Origin: Escherichia coli
GTDB lineage: Bacteria > Pseudomonadota > Gammaproteobacteria > Enterobacterales > Enterobacteriaceae
Length of the DNA: 64,000 nt
Reading direction: 5' to 3' (one strand)
NCBI RefSeq assembly: GCF_016026235.1
Contig: NZ_CP065613.1
Shown in pieces: positions 2,439 to 56,015 of this stretch. Below the pieces are notes generated by a model. It was not told the DNA's origin. It saw nothing but the letters and a program-made list of their open reading frames with translations, and made no database searches. Position 1 is the first letter of the stretch, and each line of letters begins with the position of its first letter. Both the position numbers and the translations under genes were made by a program.

Positions 2439-2527
2439 ATCGTTACCCTTTTTCAGGCAATAGTTGGCCCTGACCGAAGCGGCCAATTTTATTTTTGTCG
2501 TTATTTACACCGCGGTTTCGCATTCAT

Positions 2528-17054: not shown

Positions 17055-17066
17055 CACGCTACCGCC
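17055..17066 (-). promoter_or_regulatory. ops element (RfaH recruitment site) within a JUMPStart-type leader upstream of wza
   Basis: Plus strand reads CACGCTACCGCC, so the minus-strand transcript carries GGCGGTAGCGTG, the ops consensus, about 180 nt upstream of the wza start codon. Confidence 0.7.
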
Positions 17067-17534
17067 CCTGGCTTTTTAGCTACCAATACACTGATTTAGA
17101 TTAATTTTTCAAACCCTCTCTGCATACAATCGTTGATGAGAAAGGGTTATTGCGGAAATTAACTTCCGAATATAAGGTGACATTATGGTAATTGAATATT
17201 GGCTCTCCAATAATGCAGGAGGAAGTGTTACAGCTAACGGAATAGCAGGCAAGGTAACAATTCGGCAATTGGCTATTTTTAAGAATTATATTAAGTGTCA
17301 TTCAATATGGTTTTTAGGAGTTTCTTTAGGTTGACAATATTTAATATTGCGCCTCCACATGCGATATTTCTTAAATAATGTTTTATTATTACCACTTTTA
17401 ATTCAGGGATAATGTGAGGTTATTACCCTCAAATAATATGAGATAAATAGTGCTGCAACATTGCATTTTTTCCCCGATTTATCCATGATCGAATTGTGAC
17501 ATTTGTCATACAACGAATAGGTTTTGTACTTACT

Positions 17535-31953: not shown

Positions 31954-32134
31954 AAGAAATCCTTTCTTAGAGAATTATTGAGGTCCGGTATCATACCGAC
32001 TGCAATAATGAAATAAGAGCAAACGAAGAAACTTTCAGAATTAGTCCCGGCGGCGCAGAAAATTTTGCTATTCGCCTCGCAAGAACGGAGAGCCGTCGAT
32101 TGACACTAAGGGCGGAGTGACATAATTTCAGGAG

Positions 32135-32278
32135 TGAGGGTTAGGGAGAGGTTTCCCCCTCCCCCTGGTGTTCTTAGTAAGCCTGGAAGCTAATCACTAA
32201 GAGTATCACCAGTATGATGACGTGCTTCATCATAACCCTTTCCTTATTAAAAGCCCTCTTCTCCGGGAGAGGCTTTCC
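32135..32278 (+). ncRNA. sibA: SibA antisense sRNA (type I antitoxin); coordinates approximate
   Basis: Sigma70-like promoter TTGACA(32100-32105)-17-TAATTT(32123-32128); transcript region fully antisense to the ibsA ORF; imperfect hairpin plus T-rich tail near 32251-32278. Confidence 0.6.
32174..32233 (-). CDS. ibsA: Ibs-family type I toxin peptide (19 aa)
   Basis: Minus-strand ORF ATGATGAAGCACGTC... translates to MMKHVIILVILLVISFQAY; too short for the ORF track. Confidence 0.65.
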   Translation of the reverse strand: MMKHVIILVILLVISFQAY

Positions 32279-32492
32279 CGTTTCAGCGTCCCGCTGAAAT
32301 CATCGGCTTACCTCCTTTCGCCCTGAATGCAGTCTATCGCTAACGCGTGAATAAAATAGTTTCCTCTGTGATTATTGCGTAACGACTCGCAAAGAATATT
32401 TGCTGGCAGGATCGCAGACTACAAAGCCTACGGATTGACAATCTTATCGTGAAGGCATACTTTCAGGAGTGAGGGTAGAGCGGGGTTTCCCC

Positions 32493-33786
32493 CTGAGGAA
32501 TCCCCAGAAAACAAGACAGGCATAGTGAGATGTGATCTAATTGATTGTGCTAACAATTTCAAGGAGATCACCACTATGCCTGCACGTTCATTATGCCAAA
32601 ATTTCCTTAACAACATACTGGCCCCTTTGCATCTTTACCGTCAAAAATCACTGATTGACGCAACTAATGCTGTAATAAATGGCGCTTCCCTCACACTTAC
32701 CAGTATCGGGCGTCATTTAACCGGTACGGCATCAGTTAAAAACAAAATAAAGCGGGTGGATCGACTGTTGGGGAATCGACATTTGCAAAATGAGGTTTCC
32801 ACCATTTTTCAGCGAATTACCCAAAAGATTACGCGGGGAATGTCTCGTGTTGTGATACTCATTGACTGGAGTGCTTATCATGCCTCTCGTTTTCAGCTTT
32901 TGCGGGCAAGCCTGGCATGTGACGGGCGTTCTTTACCGTTGATGAGTTGTGTCGTTCCATCATCACAGACAGCGAATGCAGATGTACATGAGCGTTTTCT
33001 GGAATCGCTTGCTGAGTGCTTTTCCCCCGGGACTGATGTCATTGTTATTACAGATGCCGGTTTTCAGGGGCGATGGTTCCAACAGCTCCGCTCCCGTGGC
33101 TGGACCTATATTTGCCGGGTACTGGGCAATCATTATTACAATGTTGGTAATGGCTGGGAAAAGGTGTCGGACTCAGGCACAAAAGCATCAACGACAGCAA
33201 TTTATTTAGGTGAAGGCCTGCTGGGTCGAGATAAAAATGCACAACATGAAGGGCATTTTTATCTTTATAAAAGTAAGCCTAAAGGTCGTAGATTTAAACG
33301 CTCGAAGGAAAGAGCAACCAGACCATCGGTGACGGCTAAAGCTCGTACTGCCGGGAAATCACCATGGTTTATTTTCACAAACAGTACTGAGTTCTCGCCA
33401 AAACAGGTAATGAAATTATACAGCCGTAGAATGCAAATTGAGCAAAATTTCAGGGATGAAAAAAATCCTCGCTGGGGATTTGGACTACGGTTTGGTGCCA
33501 GTCATTCATCCGGGCGGGTCACGGTATTGAGTCTGATCGCAACATTAGCCAGTATCATTATGTGGTTAAGCGGTTTCAGTCTGGAAAACAAAGGGATACA
33601 TCATAAATATCAGGCAAATACAGTGAAGCACAGGCGAGTCATCTCGTTATTAAAACTGGCGGAGAATGTGATTCGACATTCTCCACTCATACTAAACACA
33701 CTGTCACTTGACGCAGGGCTGAAAGTTCTACAGCAACGGTATACCAATATGATAATGGTTTACTAAATTTTCTGGGGATCCCTCAG
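32493..33786 (+). mobile_element. IS10-like insertion sequence (IS4 family), copy 1, 1294 bp
   Basis: Imperfect terminal inverted repeats CTGAGGAATCCCCAGAAAAC / CTGAGGGATCCCCAGAAAAT; flanking direct repeat GGGTTTCCCC (32483-32492 and 33787-33796; 10-12 bp depending on end assignment); encodes an IS10-like DDE transposase. Confidence 0.9.
32525..33766 (+). CDS. IS4-family (IS10-like) DDE transposase
   Basis: 413 aa; recognisable similarity to the IS10 transposase (KRVDRLLGNRHL, YSRRMQIEQNFRDEKN, HKYQANTVKHR); alternative start at MPARSL (32576). Confidence 0.9.
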   Translation: MRCDLIDCANNFKEITTMPARSLCQNFLNNILAPLHLYRQKSLIDATNAVINGASLTLTSIGRHLTGTASVKNKIKRVDRLLGNRHLQNEVSTIFQRITQKITRGMSRVVILIDWSAYHASRFQLLRASLACDGRSLPLMSCVVPSSQTANADVHERFLESLAECFSPGTDVIVITDAGFQGRWFQQLRSRGWTYICRVLGNHYYNVGNGWEKVSDSGTKASTTAIYLGEGLLGRDKNAQHEGHFYLYKSKPKGRRFKRSKERATRPSVTAKARTAGKSPWFIFTNSTEFSPKQVMKLYSRRMQIEQNFRDEKNPRWGFGLRFGASHSSGRVTVLSLIATLASIIMWLSGFSLENKGIHHKYQANTVKHRRVISLLKLAENVIRHSPLILNTLSLDAGLKVLQQRYTNMIMVY

Positions 33787-33912
33787 GGGTTTCCCCCGCC
33801 CTGGTAGCCTTAGTAAGCTGGCCAGCTAATGACTAAGAGCACCACGATGATGAGTAGCTTCATCATGACCCTTTCCTTATTTATGGCCCCTTCCTCGGGA
33901 GGGGCTTTCCCG
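33787..33912 (+). ncRNA. sibB: SibB antisense sRNA, 3' portion; promoter and first ~25 nt are separated by the IS (5' fragment about 32465-32492)
   Basis: Second copy of the Sib repeat unit: promoter TTGACA(32435-32440)-17-TACTTT(32458-32463), then the IS, then the remainder antisense to ibsB, ending in a hairpin plus T tail near 33885-33912. Confidence 0.55.
33810..33866 (-). CDS. ibsB: Ibs-family type I toxin peptide (18 aa)
   Basis: Minus-strand ORF translates to MMKLLIIVVLLVISWPAY. Confidence 0.65.
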   Translation of the reverse strand: MMKLLIIVVLLVISWPAY

Positions 33913-34144
33913 TTTCAGCGTCCCGCTGAAATCGGCGGCTTACCTCCTTTCGCCATGCAAGCAGTCTATCGCTAACGCGTAGATAAAATAGTTTCCTGTG
34001 TTATTACTGGATGCGTGCTCGCAAATGTGCCCGTCATTCAGACGATTCCCGACAGTGTTTCATAATTCCTCCATTTTTCTCCCTTATTGGCTGGCTACAC
34101 TAGTATCATTCCGCGAAACGTTTCAGGAAGAGAAACTCTTAACG

Positions 34145-35392
34145 ATGAAAGGCAGTTATAAATCCCGTTGGGTAATCGTAATCGTGGTGGTTATCGCCGC
34201 CATCGCCGCATTCTGGTTCTGGCAAGGCCGCAATGACTCCCAGAGTGCAGCCCCAGGGGCGACGAAACAAGCGCAGCAATCGCCAGCGGGTGGTCGCCGT
34301 GGTATGCGTTCCGGCCCATTAGCCCCGGTTCAGGCGGCGACCGCCGTAGAACAGGCAGTTCCGCGTTACCTCACCGGGCTTGGCACCATTATCGCCGCTA
34401 ATACTGTTACGGTGCGCAGCCGCGTGGACGGTCAACTGATGGCGTTACATTTCCAGGAAGGCCAGCAGGTCAAAGCAGGCGATTTACTGGCAGAAATTGA
34501 CCCCAGCCAGTTCAAAGTTGCATTAGCACAAACCCAGGGCCAACTGGCAAAAGATAAAGCCACGCTTGCTAACGCCCGCCGTGATCTGGCGCGTTATCAG
34601 CAACTGGCAAAAACCAATCTCGTCTCCCGTCAGGAGCTGGATGCCCAACAGGCGCTGGTCAGTGAAACCGAAGGCACCATTAAGGCTGATGAAGCAAGCG
34701 TCGCCAGCGCGCAGTTGCAACTCGACTGGAGCCGCATCACCGCACCAGTCGATGGTCGCGTTGGTCTCAAGCAGGTTGATGTTGGTAACCAAATCTCCAG
34801 TGGTGATACCACCGGAATTGTGGTGATCACCCAGACGCATCCTATCGATTTAGTCTTTACCCTGCCGGAAAGCGATATCGCTACTGTAGTGCAGGCGCAA
34901 AAAGCCGGAAAACCGCTGGTGGTAGAAGCCTGGGATCGCACCAATTCGAAGAAATTAAGTGAAGGCACGCTGTTAAGCCTCGATAACCAAATCGATGCCA
35001 CAACCGGTACGATTAAAGTGAAAGCACGCTTTAATAATCAGGATGATGCGCTGTTTCCCAATCAGTTTGTTAACGCGCGCATGTTAGTCGACACCGAACA
35101 AAACGCCGTAGTGATCCCAACAGCCGCCCTGCAAATGGGCAATGAAGGCCATTTTGTCTGGGTGCTGAATAGCGAAAACAAGGTCAGCAAACATCTGGTG
35201 ACGCCGGGCATTCAGGACAGTCAGAAAGTGGTGATCCGTGCAGGTATTTCTGCGGGCGATCGCGTGGTGACAGACGGCATTGATCGCCTGACCGAAGGGG
35301 CGAAAGTGGAAGTGGTGGAAGCCCAGAGCGCCACCACTCCGGAAGAGAAAGCCACCAGCCGCGAATACGCGAAAAAAGGAGCACGCTCCTGA
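34145..35392 (+). CDS. mdtA: RND efflux membrane fusion protein
   Basis: ORF track 33998..35392; start trimmed to [16 protein letters not shown] (signal-anchor); periplasmic adaptor family. Confidence 0.9.
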
Positions 35393-49407: not shown

Positions 49408-49439
49408 CAGCTGCATTTATTAAGGTTATCATCCGTTTC

Positions 49440-49526
49440 GCTGAAAAACATAACCCATAAAATGCTAGCTGTACCAGGAACCACCTCCTTAGCCTGTGTA
49501 ATCTCCCTTACACGGGCTTATTTTTT
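49440..49526 (+). ncRNA. cyaR: CyaR (RyeE) sRNA
   Basis: Sequence GCTGAAAAACATAACCCATAAAATGCTAGCTGTACCAGGAACCACCTCCTTAGCCTGTGTAATCTCCCTTACACGGGCTTATTTTTT matches CyaR as recalled; terminal hairpin plus T6. Confidence 0.9.
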
Positions 49527-52267: not shown

Positions 52268-53308
52268 TCAGGGAATGAGCAACACTTTGCCCGGCATGGC
52301 ATTACGAGCGATGTCACGCACCGCCTGGGCGAAGCTTTCAAAGCTTCCACGGTGAGCGATTAATGGCTCCAGGCTTAACTTACGTTCTGTCAGCAACCGG
52401 CTCGCCGTTTCCCACTCCTGCCCCGGCCAAGGGCTGGAGTAGTTCATCCAACTGCCGATAACCGTCAGCTCTTTACGCAATATTTTGCCAAACGTTGCCG
52501 ATGTTAAATGCAGATCCTGATGCAACGTGCCCACCAGCGCCAGTTGGGCATGAGGACCGGCAATCTCTACCGCCAGTTCGACAGTTTGCGGTACGCCAGC
52601 CGTCTCGAGGATAAGCTGATTAAAGCGCAGTTCGCGTAAAACGCTCTGCATTTGCGGCGCGCTCATTTCGCTACTGTTAAATGTTTGCATCGCACCGAAA
52701 GATTTTGCCAGTGCCAGTTTTTCTGAGCTAATGTCGATAGCCGTCACACTCTTTGCTCCCAGCGCGACAGCGCACTGAATAGCCAGCAGGCCAATGGTTC
52801 CGGCACCAATAATAATAACGTTTTTATTCTCACAACCTTGCGCTAAATGAAAAGCATGCAGTCCAACGGTAATCGGCTCAATAAAAGCCCCATCCTCAAT
52901 AGGCATATCCGTGGGTAGAGCAAAGACATTTTTTCGCTTAACGACAATATATTCAGCAAATCCACCATCACGCCGCGAGCCAATAAAATCATATTTTGCG
53001 CACTGGGAATAAAACCCTTTCAAACACTCTGGACAAGTAAAACAGGGTAATAACGGCACACAGGCAACCGCATCGCCAAGGTGTAAATCATCAACACCGG
53101 ATCCCACCGCATCAATATAGCCGCTAAATTCATGGCCTAACGTTATTGGATAATAATGTGCACCATTTTTAAATATCCTGGGTAAATCGGAACCACATAA
53201 GCCCGAGCTGGCAATTTTTACCCGTACCTCATCCTGATGTTTAATTTCAGGAATGACGCTTTCTGCAACGCGCACGATACCATCAGTATCATTCACCACT
53301 GATTTCAT
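52268..53308 (-). CDS. gatD: Galactitol-1-phosphate 5-dehydrogenase (Zn-dependent)
   Basis: 346 aa; Zn-ADH motifs GHEFSG and GAGTIGL. Confidence 0.92.
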   Translation of the reverse strand: MKSVVNDTDGIVRVAESVIPEIKHQDEVRVKIASSGLCGSDLPRIFKNGAHYYPITLGHEFSGYIDAVGSGVDDLHLGDAVACVPLLPCFTCPECLKGFYSQCAKYDFIGSRRDGGFAEYIVVKRKNVFALPTDMPIEDGAFIEPITVGLHAFHLAQGCENKNVIIIGAGTIGLLAIQCAVALGAKSVTAIDISSEKLALAKSFGAMQTFNSSEMSAPQMQSVLRELRFNQLILETAGVPQTVELAVEIAGPHAQLALVGTLHQDLHLTSATFGKILRKELTVIGSWMNYSSPWPGQEWETASRLLTERKLSLEPLIAHRGSFESFAQAVRDIARNAMPGKVLLIP

Positions 53309-53340
53309 AAAAACTCCTGATTGTTAAGGGGGATAAACTC

Positions 53341-54634
53341 CTGAGGAATCCCCAGAAAACAAGACAGGCATAGTGAGATGTGATCTAATTGATTGTGCTA
53401 ACAATTTCAAGGAGATCACCACTATGCCTGCACGTTCATTATGCCAAAATTTCCTTAACAATATACTGGCCCCTTTGCATCTTTACCGTCAAAAATCACT
53501 GATTGACGCAACTAATGCTGTAATAAATGGCGCTTCCCTCACACTTACCAGTATCGGGCGTCATTTAACCGGTACGGCATCAGTTAAAAACAAAATAAAG
53601 CGGGTGGATCGACTGTTGGGGAATCGACATTTGCAAAATGAGGTTTCCACCATTTTTCAGCGAATTACCCAAAAGATTACGCGGGGAATGTCTCGTGTTG
53701 TGATACTCATTGACTGGAGTGCTTATCATGCCTCTCGTTTTCAGCTTTTGCGGGCAAGCCTGGCATGTGACGGGCGTTCTTTACCGTTGATGAGTTGTGT
53801 CGTTCCATCATCACAGACAGCGAATGCAGATGTACATGAGCGTTTTCTGGAATCGCTTGCTGAGTGCTTTTCCCCCGGGACTGATGTCATTGTTATTACA
53901 GATGCCGGTTTTCAGGGGCGATGGTTCCAACAGCTCCGCTCCCGTGGCTGGACCTATATTTGCCGGGTACTGGGCAATCATTATTACAATGTTGGTAATG
54001 GCTGGGAAAAGGTGTCGGACTCAGGCACAAAAGCATCAACGACAGCAATTTATTTAGGTGAAGGCCTGCTGGGTCGAGATAAAAATGCACAACATGAAGG
54101 GCATTTTTATCTTTATAAAAGTAAGCCTAAAGGTCGTAGATTTAAACGCTCGAAGGAAAGAGCAACCAGACCATCGGTGACGGCTAAAGCTCGTACTGCC
54201 GGGAAATCACCATGGTTTATTTTCACAAACAGTACTGAGTTCTCGCCAAAACAGGTAATGAAATTATACAGCCGTAGAATGCAAATTGAGCAAAATTTCA
54301 GGGATGAAAAAAATCCTCGCTGGGGATTTGGACTACGGTTTGGTGCCAGTCATTCATCCGGGCGGGTCACGGTATTGAGTCTGATCGCAACATTAGCCAG
54401 TATCATTATGTGGTTAAGCGGTTTCAGCCTGGAAAACAAAGGGATACATCATAAATATCAGGCAAATACAGTGAAGCACAGGCGAGTCATCTCGTTATTA
54501 AAACTGGCGGAGAATGTGATTCGACATTCTCCACTCATACTAAACACACTGTCACTTGACGCAGGGCTGAAAGTTCTACAGCAACGGTATACCAATATGA
54601 TAATGGTTTACTAAATTTTCTGGGGATCCCTCAG
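53341..54634 (+). mobile_element. IS10-like insertion sequence (IS4 family), copy 2, 1294 bp
   Basis: Same element as copy 1, with at least two single-base differences (offsets 121 and 1087); flanking direct repeat GGATAAACTC (53331-53340 and 54635-54644). Confidence 0.9.
53373..54614 (+). CDS. IS4-family (IS10-like) DDE transposase
   Basis: 413 aa, protein identical to the copy-1 transposase. Confidence 0.9.
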   Translation: MRCDLIDCANNFKEITTMPARSLCQNFLNNILAPLHLYRQKSLIDATNAVINGASLTLTSIGRHLTGTASVKNKIKRVDRLLGNRHLQNEVSTIFQRITQKITRGMSRVVILIDWSAYHASRFQLLRASLACDGRSLPLMSCVVPSSQTANADVHERFLESLAECFSPGTDVIVITDAGFQGRWFQQLRSRGWTYICRVLGNHYYNVGNGWEKVSDSGTKASTTAIYLGEGLLGRDKNAQHEGHFYLYKSKPKGRRFKRSKERATRPSVTAKARTAGKSPWFIFTNSTEFSPKQVMKLYSRRMQIEQNFRDEKNPRWGFGLRFGASHSSGRVTVLSLIATLASIIMWLSGFSLENKGIHHKYQANTVKHRRVISLLKLAENVIRHSPLILNTLSLDAGLKVLQQRYTNMIMVY

Positions 54635-54659
54635 GGATAAACTCCCCCTCAGTTAAAAA

Positions 54660-56015
54660 TTATTCTGCGAGAACGGCTTTCTCTTGTTTAATAAAACCAC
54701 GCGCTCTACGCCAGGTAATGAAAATACCGGTCAGATAAATTGCGCCGATAATAATGAAACCGGGAATATTTTGCGGGGAGAAAACCTGAATCAGTAACCA
54801 GGTAATGGGAGAACCGCCCTGATCCATTGAAGCCACCATACCCCCGGCTTTTAACGCCCCAGCATTAGCCGCCAGTTGGGTGTGCAAACCAATAGTTTGC
54901 GTCGCGATCCACAGAGTGATGCTCATGATGATGACACCCGAGATTAAGGTGCGGAACAGATTTCCACGATGCACGGCGACTGCCATCGCCACAAAGAAGC
55001 CGATGGTGGCAAGATCGCCAAACGGCAGCACCTGATTACCCGGAACACAAACAGCAATTAAAATGGTGAGCGGGATAAAAATCAGGCTTGCCGATACCAC
55101 CGCCGTATGCCCCAGCAGTAATGCGGGATCCAGGCCAATCAGGAACTCCTGACCGCCGAACTTCGCCTGTAAACGACTACGGGCCTGCTTAGCGATGGGC
55201 GTTAAACCATCCATGATGGGTTTAATCACCCGTGGCATTAGCAGCATCACTGCCGCCGTTTTTACCGCCAGCTGCAATACACCTTTGACATCGTAACCCG
55301 CGAGGATGCCGATAATCAGCCCCATCACAAAACCCACGGTGACAGGCTCGCCAAATGGACCAAATTTGCGCTGAATATCGTCGGCGCTAAATTTAATTCG
55401 GTTAACGCCTGGGATTTTCTCGATGATAGCATCGACCAGCACCGCAATCGGCCCCATATACGCCGACGTACCGTGCGGAATAGCAATACCTTCCAGCTCA
55501 AAGAAATTTCGGGTATCGCGGGCAAACCAGTCGCCGAGCTTATAAACAAACGCCGCGTGAATTACCACACCTGCCATCCCTATCATCCATGAACCGGTTG
55601 CCAGATGCAGCAACGCGCCGGTGAAGGTCATATGCCAGATATTCCAGATATCAACATTTACCACCCGCGTCATACGGGTCAGTAACATCGCCACGTTAAC
55701 CAGAATCGCAATCGGAATCGCCACCAGCGCAATTTGCGACGCCCAGGTCATTGGTGAAGAGCCCGGCCAGCCGACATCGACCACATGCAGATTCAGGTCG
55801 AAATTTTCCGCCATCGCTTTCGCCGCCGGACCAATGGAATCCAGCATTAAGCCAATCACAAGGCCAATGCCAACAAAGCCAATCCCGATATGCAGACCCG
55901 CTTTAAAGCAATCGCCTGCCTTCATGCCTAATATTTTAGAAAAAATAATGATGACAATCGGAAGCATCACCGTAGGGCCGAGGTCGAGAATATAACGCAT
56001 GACTTCTGAAAACAT
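54660..56015 (-). CDS. gatC: PTS galactitol-specific EIIC
   Basis: 451 aa; polytopic membrane protein. Confidence 0.92.
   Translation of the reverse strand: MFSEVMRYILDLGPTVMLPIVIIIFSKILGMKAGDCFKAGLHIGIGFVGIGLVIGLMLDSIGPAAKAMAENFDLNLHVVDVGWPGSSPMTWASQIALVAIPIAILVNVAMLLTRMTRVVNVDIWNIWHMTFTGALLHLATGSWMIGMAGVVIHAAFVYKLGDWFARDTRNFFELEGIAIPHGTSAYMGPIAVLVDAIIEKIPGVNRIKFSADDIQRKFGPFGEPVTVGFVMGLIIGILAGYDVKGVLQLAVKTAAVMLLMPRVIKPIMDGLTPIAKQARSRLQAKFGGQEFLIGLDPALLLGHTAVVSASLIFIPLTILIAVCVPGNQVLPFGDLATIGFFVAMAVAVHRGNLFRTLISGVIIMSITLWIATQTIGLHTQLAANAGALKAGGMVASMDQGGSPITWLLIQVFSPQNIPGFIIIGAIYLTGIFITWRRARGFIKQEKAVLAE

Follow-up and report, generated by a model that had tools for sequence, protein, structure and literature searches.

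An ISEc60 insertion within the sibB antitoxin RNA gene of Escherichia coli beside an intact ibsB toxin gene

How does an Escherichia coli strain live with an Ibs toxin gene when the gene for the matching antitoxin RNA has been cut in two? The question is raised by the yegL-mdtA interval in a 64,000-nucleotide stretch of E. coli DNA (RefSeq assembly GCF_016026235.1, contig NZ_CP065613.1; called the window here), which holds two Sib/Ibs repeat units, the second with an insertion sequence (IS) in its antitoxin RNA gene, sibB. Such repeats are type I toxin-antitoxin loci of E. coli and were reportedly described by Fozo et al. in 2008. We identified the inserted element as ISEc60, analyzed its target preference and its recurrence among strains, and weighed what the insertion would mean for the toxin gene ibsB.

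Anatomy of the interrupted sibB unit

The promoter and the antisense body of sibB are uncoupled by ISEc60, since both domains for target recognition (TRD1 and TRD2) and the terminator all lie in a 3' fragment 1.3 kb away from the promoter. The promoter and nt +1-22 are split from nt +23-136 by the 1294-bp IS and a 10-bp target-site duplication, and sibB no longer forms one continuous small RNA (sRNA) gene of ~140 nt running from its own promoter to its own terminator (Table 1). A first-pass annotation of the window had recognized two Sib/Ibs units, the first of them intact, and a TTGACA-17-TACTTT promoter separated from the rest of the second unit by a 1294-bp IS; both observations were confirmed. 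The sibB promoter is identical to that of K-12 in an alignment, and through it the K-12 sibB annotation (b4437, 2153646-2153781) was placed on the window. The annotated +1 maps to position 32471 and not downstream of 33787, which puts the IS inside the SibB RNA, as had been proposed, rather than in a spacer. The insertion point is 22 nt downstream of this +1, somewhat less than the ~25 nt of SibB originally assigned to the promoter side. The promoter now faces the left end of the IS, with transcription directed into the element.

The IS is flanked by the 10-bp direct repeat GGGTTTCCCC, which occurs once at the site in K-12 and in strain VL40. The element starts with CTGAGGAATCCCCAGAAAAC and finishes with ATTTTCTGGGGATCCCTCAG, and its terminal inverted repeats (32493-32512 and 33767-33786) match at 18 of 20 positions (CTGAGGAATCCCCAGAAAAC / CTGAGGGATCCCCAGAAAAT). 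At the junctions GGGGTTTCCCCC is repeated over 12 nt, with a G before and a C after the 10-bp repeat. These two bases allow the IS boundary to be placed one base further to either side, which accounts for the first-pass coordinates: the direct repeat on both sides had been recognized, but the ends of the IS were set one base too far to the right. A fold predicted for intact SibB has the target, GCGGGGUUUCCCCCGC, as its 5' stem-loop P2. The comparison with uninterrupted sibB alleles that had been suggested revealed the empty site in K-12 and in VL40; against VL40 the two flanks of the window show 100% and 99.97% identity, over 2.9 kb on each side. An empty site between near-identical flanks establishes a genuine insertion, as opposed to a chance likeness. 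An assembly artefact was ruled out as well, since other, independent complete genomes show both junctions, the duplication and the same structure.

The two parts of sibB differ in what they retain. The 5' fragment alone scores 27.8 bits on the Rfam SIB_RNA model (RF00113, gathering score 56), for which the intact sibA RNA, with its promoter TTGACA at 32100, reaches 149.5 bits. The 3' fragment is without a promoter and keeps TRD1 (+42-64), TRD2 (+92-111) and the terminator hairpin, where the domain positions are those of SibC mapped onto the SibB of the window (Han 2010, PMC2943612).

Hydrophobic open reading frames (ORFs) of 18-19 aa, fully overlapped by the opposite Sib RNA, are present for both ibsA and ibsB, and homologous ORFs are annotated in RefSeq as Ibs family toxins. 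The ibsB allele of the window ends in …SWPAY, a natural variant of the …SFPAY of K-12. Across 194 nt (33797-33990), which take in the ibsB ORF and its upstream region, the window matches IS-free strains, LD27-1 among them, at 100% identity. The ORF, the Shine-Dalgarno sequence (SD) and the 5' untranslated region (UTR) are all unchanged. Judged by its sequence, the ibsB toxin gene is without decay, and the earlier suggestion that it might be inactive found no support in this identity.

Compared with VL40, the window has ~10 clustered differences in the ibsB/SibB 3' part (33797-33940), comprising the TRD1 patch and the IbsB replacement F15W. Since this part is unlike VL40 and 100% identical to unrelated strains (LD27-1), with flanks that match VL40, gene conversion or recombination limited to the sib unit is suggested.

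Table 1. Coordinates of the Sib/Ibs units, the inserted element and related features in the window
Feature	Position	Strand	Basis
sibA antitoxin RNA, unit 1, intact	32136..32279	+	coordinates transferred from K-12 annotation
ibsA, opposite sibA, product MMKHVIILVILLVISFQAY	32174-32233	-	
sibB promoter, TTGACA (32435-32440), 17-nt spacer, TACTTT (32458-32463)	32435..32463	+	
SibB 5' fragment, nt +1 to +22; P1 5' strand and first half of P2 hairpin	32471..32492	+	
Target-site duplication, left copy, 10 bp, GGGTTTCCCC	32483..32492		
ISEc60, IS4 family, 1294 bp	32493..33786	+	ends set from the 2 window copies and >10 other copies
Long inverted repeat over transposase SD and AUG	32516..32583	-	predicted folds
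Transposase gene of ISEc60 (396 aa), in the same direction as sibB	32576..33766	+	ORF
Weak promoter-like site TCTACA-18-GATAAT in IS right end	33727..33756	+	consensus scan, 9/12 matches
Target-site duplication, right copy, 10 bp, GGGTTTCCCC	33787..33796		
SibB 3' fragment, nt +13 to +136 including duplicated bases	33787..33910	+	72.3 bits, Rfam SIB_RNA
ibsB toxin ORF, 18 aa, MMKLLIIVVLLVISWPAY, intact	33810..33866	-	read directly in the sequence
Second copy of ISEc60, in the gatC-gatD intergenic hairpin; differs from the sibB copy by 2 nt	53341..54634	+	

Other Rfam matches in the window are ordinary features of the region: CyaR (49438-49523, 100.7 bits), a JUMPstart element (17055-17093, minus strand, 57.3 bits) and an algC RNA motif (2443-2492, minus strand, 76.6 bits).

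Identity, targets and recurrence of ISEc60

Over its 1294 bp the element in sibB is 99.9% identical to copies annotated in RefSeq as "IS4-like element ISEc60 family transposase"; the name used here rests on these annotated copies. The transposase matches NCBIfam NF033591 (transpos_IS4_2) with 360.5 bits against a cut-off of 152 (residues 39-390), while a PDB sequence search with it returned nothing at E <= 0.01. The first-pass annotation had called the element IS10-like. This holds as a family statement, and by sequence ISEc60 is IS10-like in the broad family sense only. IS10 proper was ruled out: the transposases share ~36% identity over 375 residues, the duplications measure 10-11 bp and not 9 bp, and the targets are G-run…C-run sequences.

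To define the target, ISEc60 junctions were gathered from the window, four enteroinvasive E. coli (EIEC) chromosomes, several plasmids and strain FDAARGOS_943. Ten of 11 independent sites fit a hairpin of the form G3-5, N3-7, C3-5, with duplications of 10-11 bp; both window copies have 10-bp duplications and the other copies 10-11 bp. GGG and CCC stand at opposite edges of random 10- or 11-mers of the window with a frequency of 3.3e-4, and the insertions thus fall in such motifs far more often than chance would give. The reconstructed empty sites are GCGGGGTTTCCCCCGC (sibB), GGGGGATAAACTCCCCC (the gatC-gatD spacer, which holds the second window copy), GGCGGGGATTTTCCCCGCC (plasmid, used in both orientations), GCGCGGGGATTTTCCCCGCGC (directly 3' of hokB in FDAARGOS_943), CCGGGGACAATCTCCCC (mppA), CAGGGATATCCCCCTG (mscL), and GGCGGGGATTTACCCC, CCGGGGATTTACCC and GGGAGGGCTACCCCTCCC (each plasmid or chromosomal). 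An IS-free reconstruction of the window contains only four G4-N3-7-C4 sites, two of which are occupied. Among the five Sib RNAs of K-12 a G4-loop-C4 hairpin is present in SibB only (GGGGTTTCCCCC); the corresponding sequence reads GAGGTTTCCCCC in SibA and GGAGGATT..TCC in SibC, SibD and SibE. As the preferred G-run/loop/C-run motif GCGGGGTTTCCCCCGC encodes the P2 stem-loop of SibB, sibB is a recurrent hot spot.

The second window copy has the 10-bp duplication GGATAAACTC at 53331-53340 and 54635-54644 and sits between two minus-strand genes, gatC (54660-56015) and gatD (52268-53308). It is probably polar on gatD, and hence galactitol use would be affected.

Further observations concern other ISEc60 sites and relatives. 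The plasmid leading-region hairpin GGCGGGGATTTTCCCCGCC adjoins an antirestriction gene and carries ISEc60 either way round on different plasmids; on the pINV plasmid of strain RMDEC332 the element directly abuts an end of IS421 (IS186-like) in this same hairpin. Relatives with ~50% protein identity in Photorhabdus spp. and E. coli E69 have the same CTGAGGAATCCCC termini. Their 10-bp duplications, CCCGACAGGG, CCCCACGGGG and CCCTGTAGGG, are C-run…G-run hairpins, the mirror of the ISEc60 targets; these relatives are elements with a CTGAGGAATCCCC terminus, for which ends could be found automatically, and other loci were excluded.

ISEc60 is a rare element: a full-length copy (at least 80% of its length) was present in 14 of 5426 complete E. 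coli genomes, mainly invasive E. coli with pINV, and in five of the 14 it lies in sibB. Three strains, VL46, CFSAN029787 and RMDEC364, belong to one lineage, as judged from shared YegI, YegL and MdtA proteins. VL46 has three sib units, the second with the IS and the third empty. In CFSAN029787 the second and third units both carry the IS at the identical position, and in RMDEC364 a single IS links the promoter of unit 2 to the ibs gene of unit 3. The last arrangement is consistent with a deletion by recombination between two direct IS copies such as those of CFSAN029787. RMDEC332 has the IS in sibB beside a different ibsB allele. In FDAARGOS_943 site and duplication are unchanged but the element is inverted; this copy is split by an IS66 element, and ibsB is intact. 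The left flank of the window is only 97.5-98.5% identical to those of RMDEC332 and CFSAN029787. Comparison of these alleles leaves us certain that several independent hits in sibB have occurred, given the differences in orientation, at unit 3 and in the flanks. A single ancestral insertion spread by recombination alone was ruled out, because the FDAARGOS_943 copy is inverted and unit 3 is empty in VL46 but filled in CFSAN029787.

Fate of the SibB transcript and of ibsB

Our assessment, rated slightly better than even, is that canonical SibB has been lost and that a weakly expressed orphan ibsB is tolerated, in preference to an antitoxin made by way of the IS. ISEc60 would have transposed into a preferred short G-run/loop/C-run hairpin, here P2 of SibB, after which the normal 136-nt SibB could no longer be produced from its own promoter. 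Transcripts from the sibB promoter would enter the IS and fold with the transposase start codon hidden, and ibsB would become an orphan toxin gene, the 3' end of its own mRNA now also entering the IS. The main reason for tolerance would be that a single copy of ibsB, driven by its native signals, yields too little toxin to matter, and not that anything has compensated. Such simple tolerance is favored since the disrupted sibB persists in both orientations, once with an IS broken by IS66, which argues against dependence on any single outward transcript borne by the IS.

Several points weigh against this assessment. Toxicity of Ibs proteins and repression by the cognate Sib RNA were shown experimentally for other pairs, mainly ibsC/SibC, and a strain without ibsC/sibC could not be transformed even by an uninduced ibsC plasmid (Han 2010, PMC2943612). 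Since Ibs is thus toxic even when little of it is expressed, an unrepressed chromosomal ibsB is harder to accept. The transposase gene and the SibB 3' fragment moreover point the same way as the sibB promoter, no strong terminator is predicted between them, and antisense RNA may still be made in this orientation. A search by eye for an ibsB promoter on the minus strand at 33930-34000 gave no confident assignment. These alleles occur in IS-rich EIEC or Shigella-like lineages, where mildly harmful insertions can persist.

What transcripts entering the IS would do was examined with predicted folds. An 11-bp perfect inverted repeat, lengthened by inner pairs, flanks the SD and AUG of the transposase gene. 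In plus-strand RNA that enters from the sibB promoter this region is predicted to fold with -51 kcal/mol (z -6.0) with SD and AUG paired, while RNA starting at ~32548 is predicted to be unstructured. On the minus strand the same repeat gives a 68-nt near-perfect hairpin with a U-tract (-37.4 kcal/mol, z -6.5, predicted), preceded by an extended -10 motif, TGgCATAAT (32598 to 32590). This hairpin, antisense to the transposase SD and AUG, looks like an analogue of RNA-OUT. An Rfam scan of the IS for RNA-OUT gave no match at E <= 1, and the RNA-OUT-like hairpin is therefore a structural prediction only.

Any antisense cover of ibsB would have to come from transcripts that cross the right end of the IS and stop at the Sib terminator. 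Such a chimeric antitoxin could start at the sibB promoter, the transposase promoter or a right-end promoter and repress ibsB through TRD1; we regard this as possible but clearly the less probable outcome. Experimental work on SibC, in which TRD1 and TRD2 were defined as +46-68 and +99-115, makes the route plausible: SibC lost no activity on deletion of nt 1-29, and TRD1 by itself is enough for repression, whereas TRD2 requires the P1 stem (Han 2010, PMC2943612). With both domains and the terminator present, the SibB 3' fragment is predicted to retain the TRD1 stem-loop and terminator when folded alone (33787-33910), and its duplicated GGGUU would be able to re-form a P1-like stem. No convincing terminator was predicted before 33886 on the way from the sibB promoter through the co-directional transposase gene to the 3' fragment, and the lack of decay in ibsB also fits a toxin still under control.

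The promoters available for this route are less encouraging. The promoter-like site in the right end of the IS, if active, would start RNA ~23 nt before the IS end and read into the 3' fragment. It is weak, though, and in a scan of 32000-34150 six sites were found against 3.4 +/- 2.1 in shuffled sequences; a site not above chance cannot be called a promoter. The scan also failed to pick up the established sibB promoter, since TACTTT makes a poor -10. Transposase promoters of IS elements tend to be weak, and read-in transcripts, predicted to be untranslated, would be exposed to Rho termination. In FDAARGOS_943, furthermore, the IS is inverted and interrupted by IS66 and ibsB is nevertheless intact, so this route is not required there.

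The insertion also bears on the toxin mRNA. The first-pass annotation had described ibsB and its upstream region as untouched, and this holds for the DNA, but its transcription unit is probably altered. By analogy with ibsC, whose ~159-nt mRNA spans all of SibC with an 18-nt 5' overhang (Han 2010, PMC2943612), the 3' end of the ibsB mRNA would fall in the split region and has probably been displaced by the IS. A terminator-like hairpin for minus-strand transcripts lies ~100-127 nt inside the element, at 33686 to 33659. It could be argued that a transcript with such an altered 3' end is unstable or poorly translated, leaving the antitoxin unneeded. We consider this improbable: the ends of ibs mRNAs are poorly defined even for ibsC (Han 2010, PMC2943612), the ibsB ORF, SD and 5' UTR are unchanged, and a longer 3' UTR with a strong terminal hairpin could equally stabilize the mRNA.

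Repression in trans by SibA, or by another Sib paralogue in the genome, is the most doubtful of these alternatives and we give it hardly any weight. SibA is intact 335 bp upstream, and cross-talk from it had been named as an outcome in the first-pass annotation. Sib repression is cognate-specific, with the exception that ibsA can be recognized by non-cognate Sibs, and SibC and SibD do not cross-react (Han 2010, PMC2943612). SibC and SibD differ at only four TRD1 positions, whereas SibA and the SibB of the window differ at 5 of 23 TRD1 positions and 4 of 20 TRD2 positions. As SibA is thus further from SibB in TRD1 than two RNAs that fail to cross-react are from each other, it is unlikely to substitute for SibB. 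K-12 SibC, SibD and SibE diverge from the window SibB still more than SibA does.

Relation to known systems and significance

Apart from the interruption, the locus corresponds to the Sib/Ibs system of E. coli. It has the same yegL-sibA/ibsA-sibB/ibsB-mdtA order, promoter, Rfam SIB_RNA match and 18-aa hydrophobic Ibs ORF on the opposite strand, with TRD1 and TRD2 likewise in hypervariable patches. It differs in that sibB is split at +22 by the 1294-bp IS and the antitoxin is uncoupled from its promoter.

With IS10/Tn10 the element shares a DDE transposase of the IS4 branch and, as predicted, an RNA-IN/RNA-OUT-like layout with fold-back protection against read-in. The termini of both presumably begin with CTGA-GAATCCCC. 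IS10 is 1329 bp long, makes 9-bp duplications and uses NGCTNAGCN-type targets, whereas ISEc60 is 1294 bp long, makes duplications of 10-11 bp and uses G-run/loop/C-run hairpins. In target kind and hot-spot behavior ISEc60 is like IS186, for which SaiSree et al. reportedly gave the target consensus (G)>=4(N)3-6(C)>=4 in 2001. In the K-12 sequence IS186A is found 19 nt 3' of hokC; it occupies GGCGGGGATCACTCCCCGCC and is flanked by a 10-bp duplication. The two elements differ in transposase branch and in termini (CATAAGCGC… against CTGAGGAAT…). We know of no report of IS186 in sibB.

The nearest parallel in terms of locus is hok/sok. Chromosomal hok/sok loci of E. coli K-12 are said to be interrupted by IS elements, as Pedersen and Gerdes reportedly described in 1999, and they share with sibB the entry of an IS that targets GC hairpins into a type I toxin-antitoxin locus (IS186A at hokC; ISEc60 at hokB in FDAARGOS_943). 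GC-clamped hairpins of type I toxin loci (hokB, hokC) seem to attract this IS class repeatedly. At hok/sok the IS hits the toxin mRNA at its 3' end and probably inactivates the toxin, whereas at sibB the antitoxin RNA gene is cut and the toxin ORF with its upstream signals is intact.

Literature searches found nothing relevant on IS insertions in Sib/Ibs loci and no work on ISEc60 that deals with sib or with target choice. The insertion is a new instance of known phenomena, namely of a GC-hairpin-targeting element of the IS4 family and of IS hits in type I toxin-antitoxin loci such as hokC in K-12. New here are the identity of the element, a target rule that explains the position and recurrence of the insertion, and a natural allelic series.

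The target rule predicts that ISEc60 lands in small GC-clamped hairpins; among these are hairpins within sRNA genes, those 3' to hok genes and those separating operon genes such as gatC and gatD. In a bolder reading, to which we attach little probability, the hairpin in sibB serves ISEc60 as an inbuilt landing pad, and the EIEC allele series, made up of an empty site, one IS, two IS and an inverted IS, shows either that IbsB needs no cognate antitoxin under native conditions or that the IS has taken over transcription of the antitoxin. Should such a takeover be true, the transposase mRNA and the SibB antisense RNA would be a single transcript ending at the Sib terminator, coupling expression of the IS to control of the toxin.

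Whether chromosomal type I toxins are dangerous at native levels without their antitoxin RNA is still debated, and most of the evidence comes from over-expression. The strains described here offer natural alleles in which SibB has been severed from its promoter and ibsB, with its signals, has stayed the same. With the empty site in VL40 and the intermediate states in VL46, CFSAN029787, RMDEC364 and FDAARGOS_943 as built-in controls, they would allow a test of whether IbsB needs SibB under native conditions.

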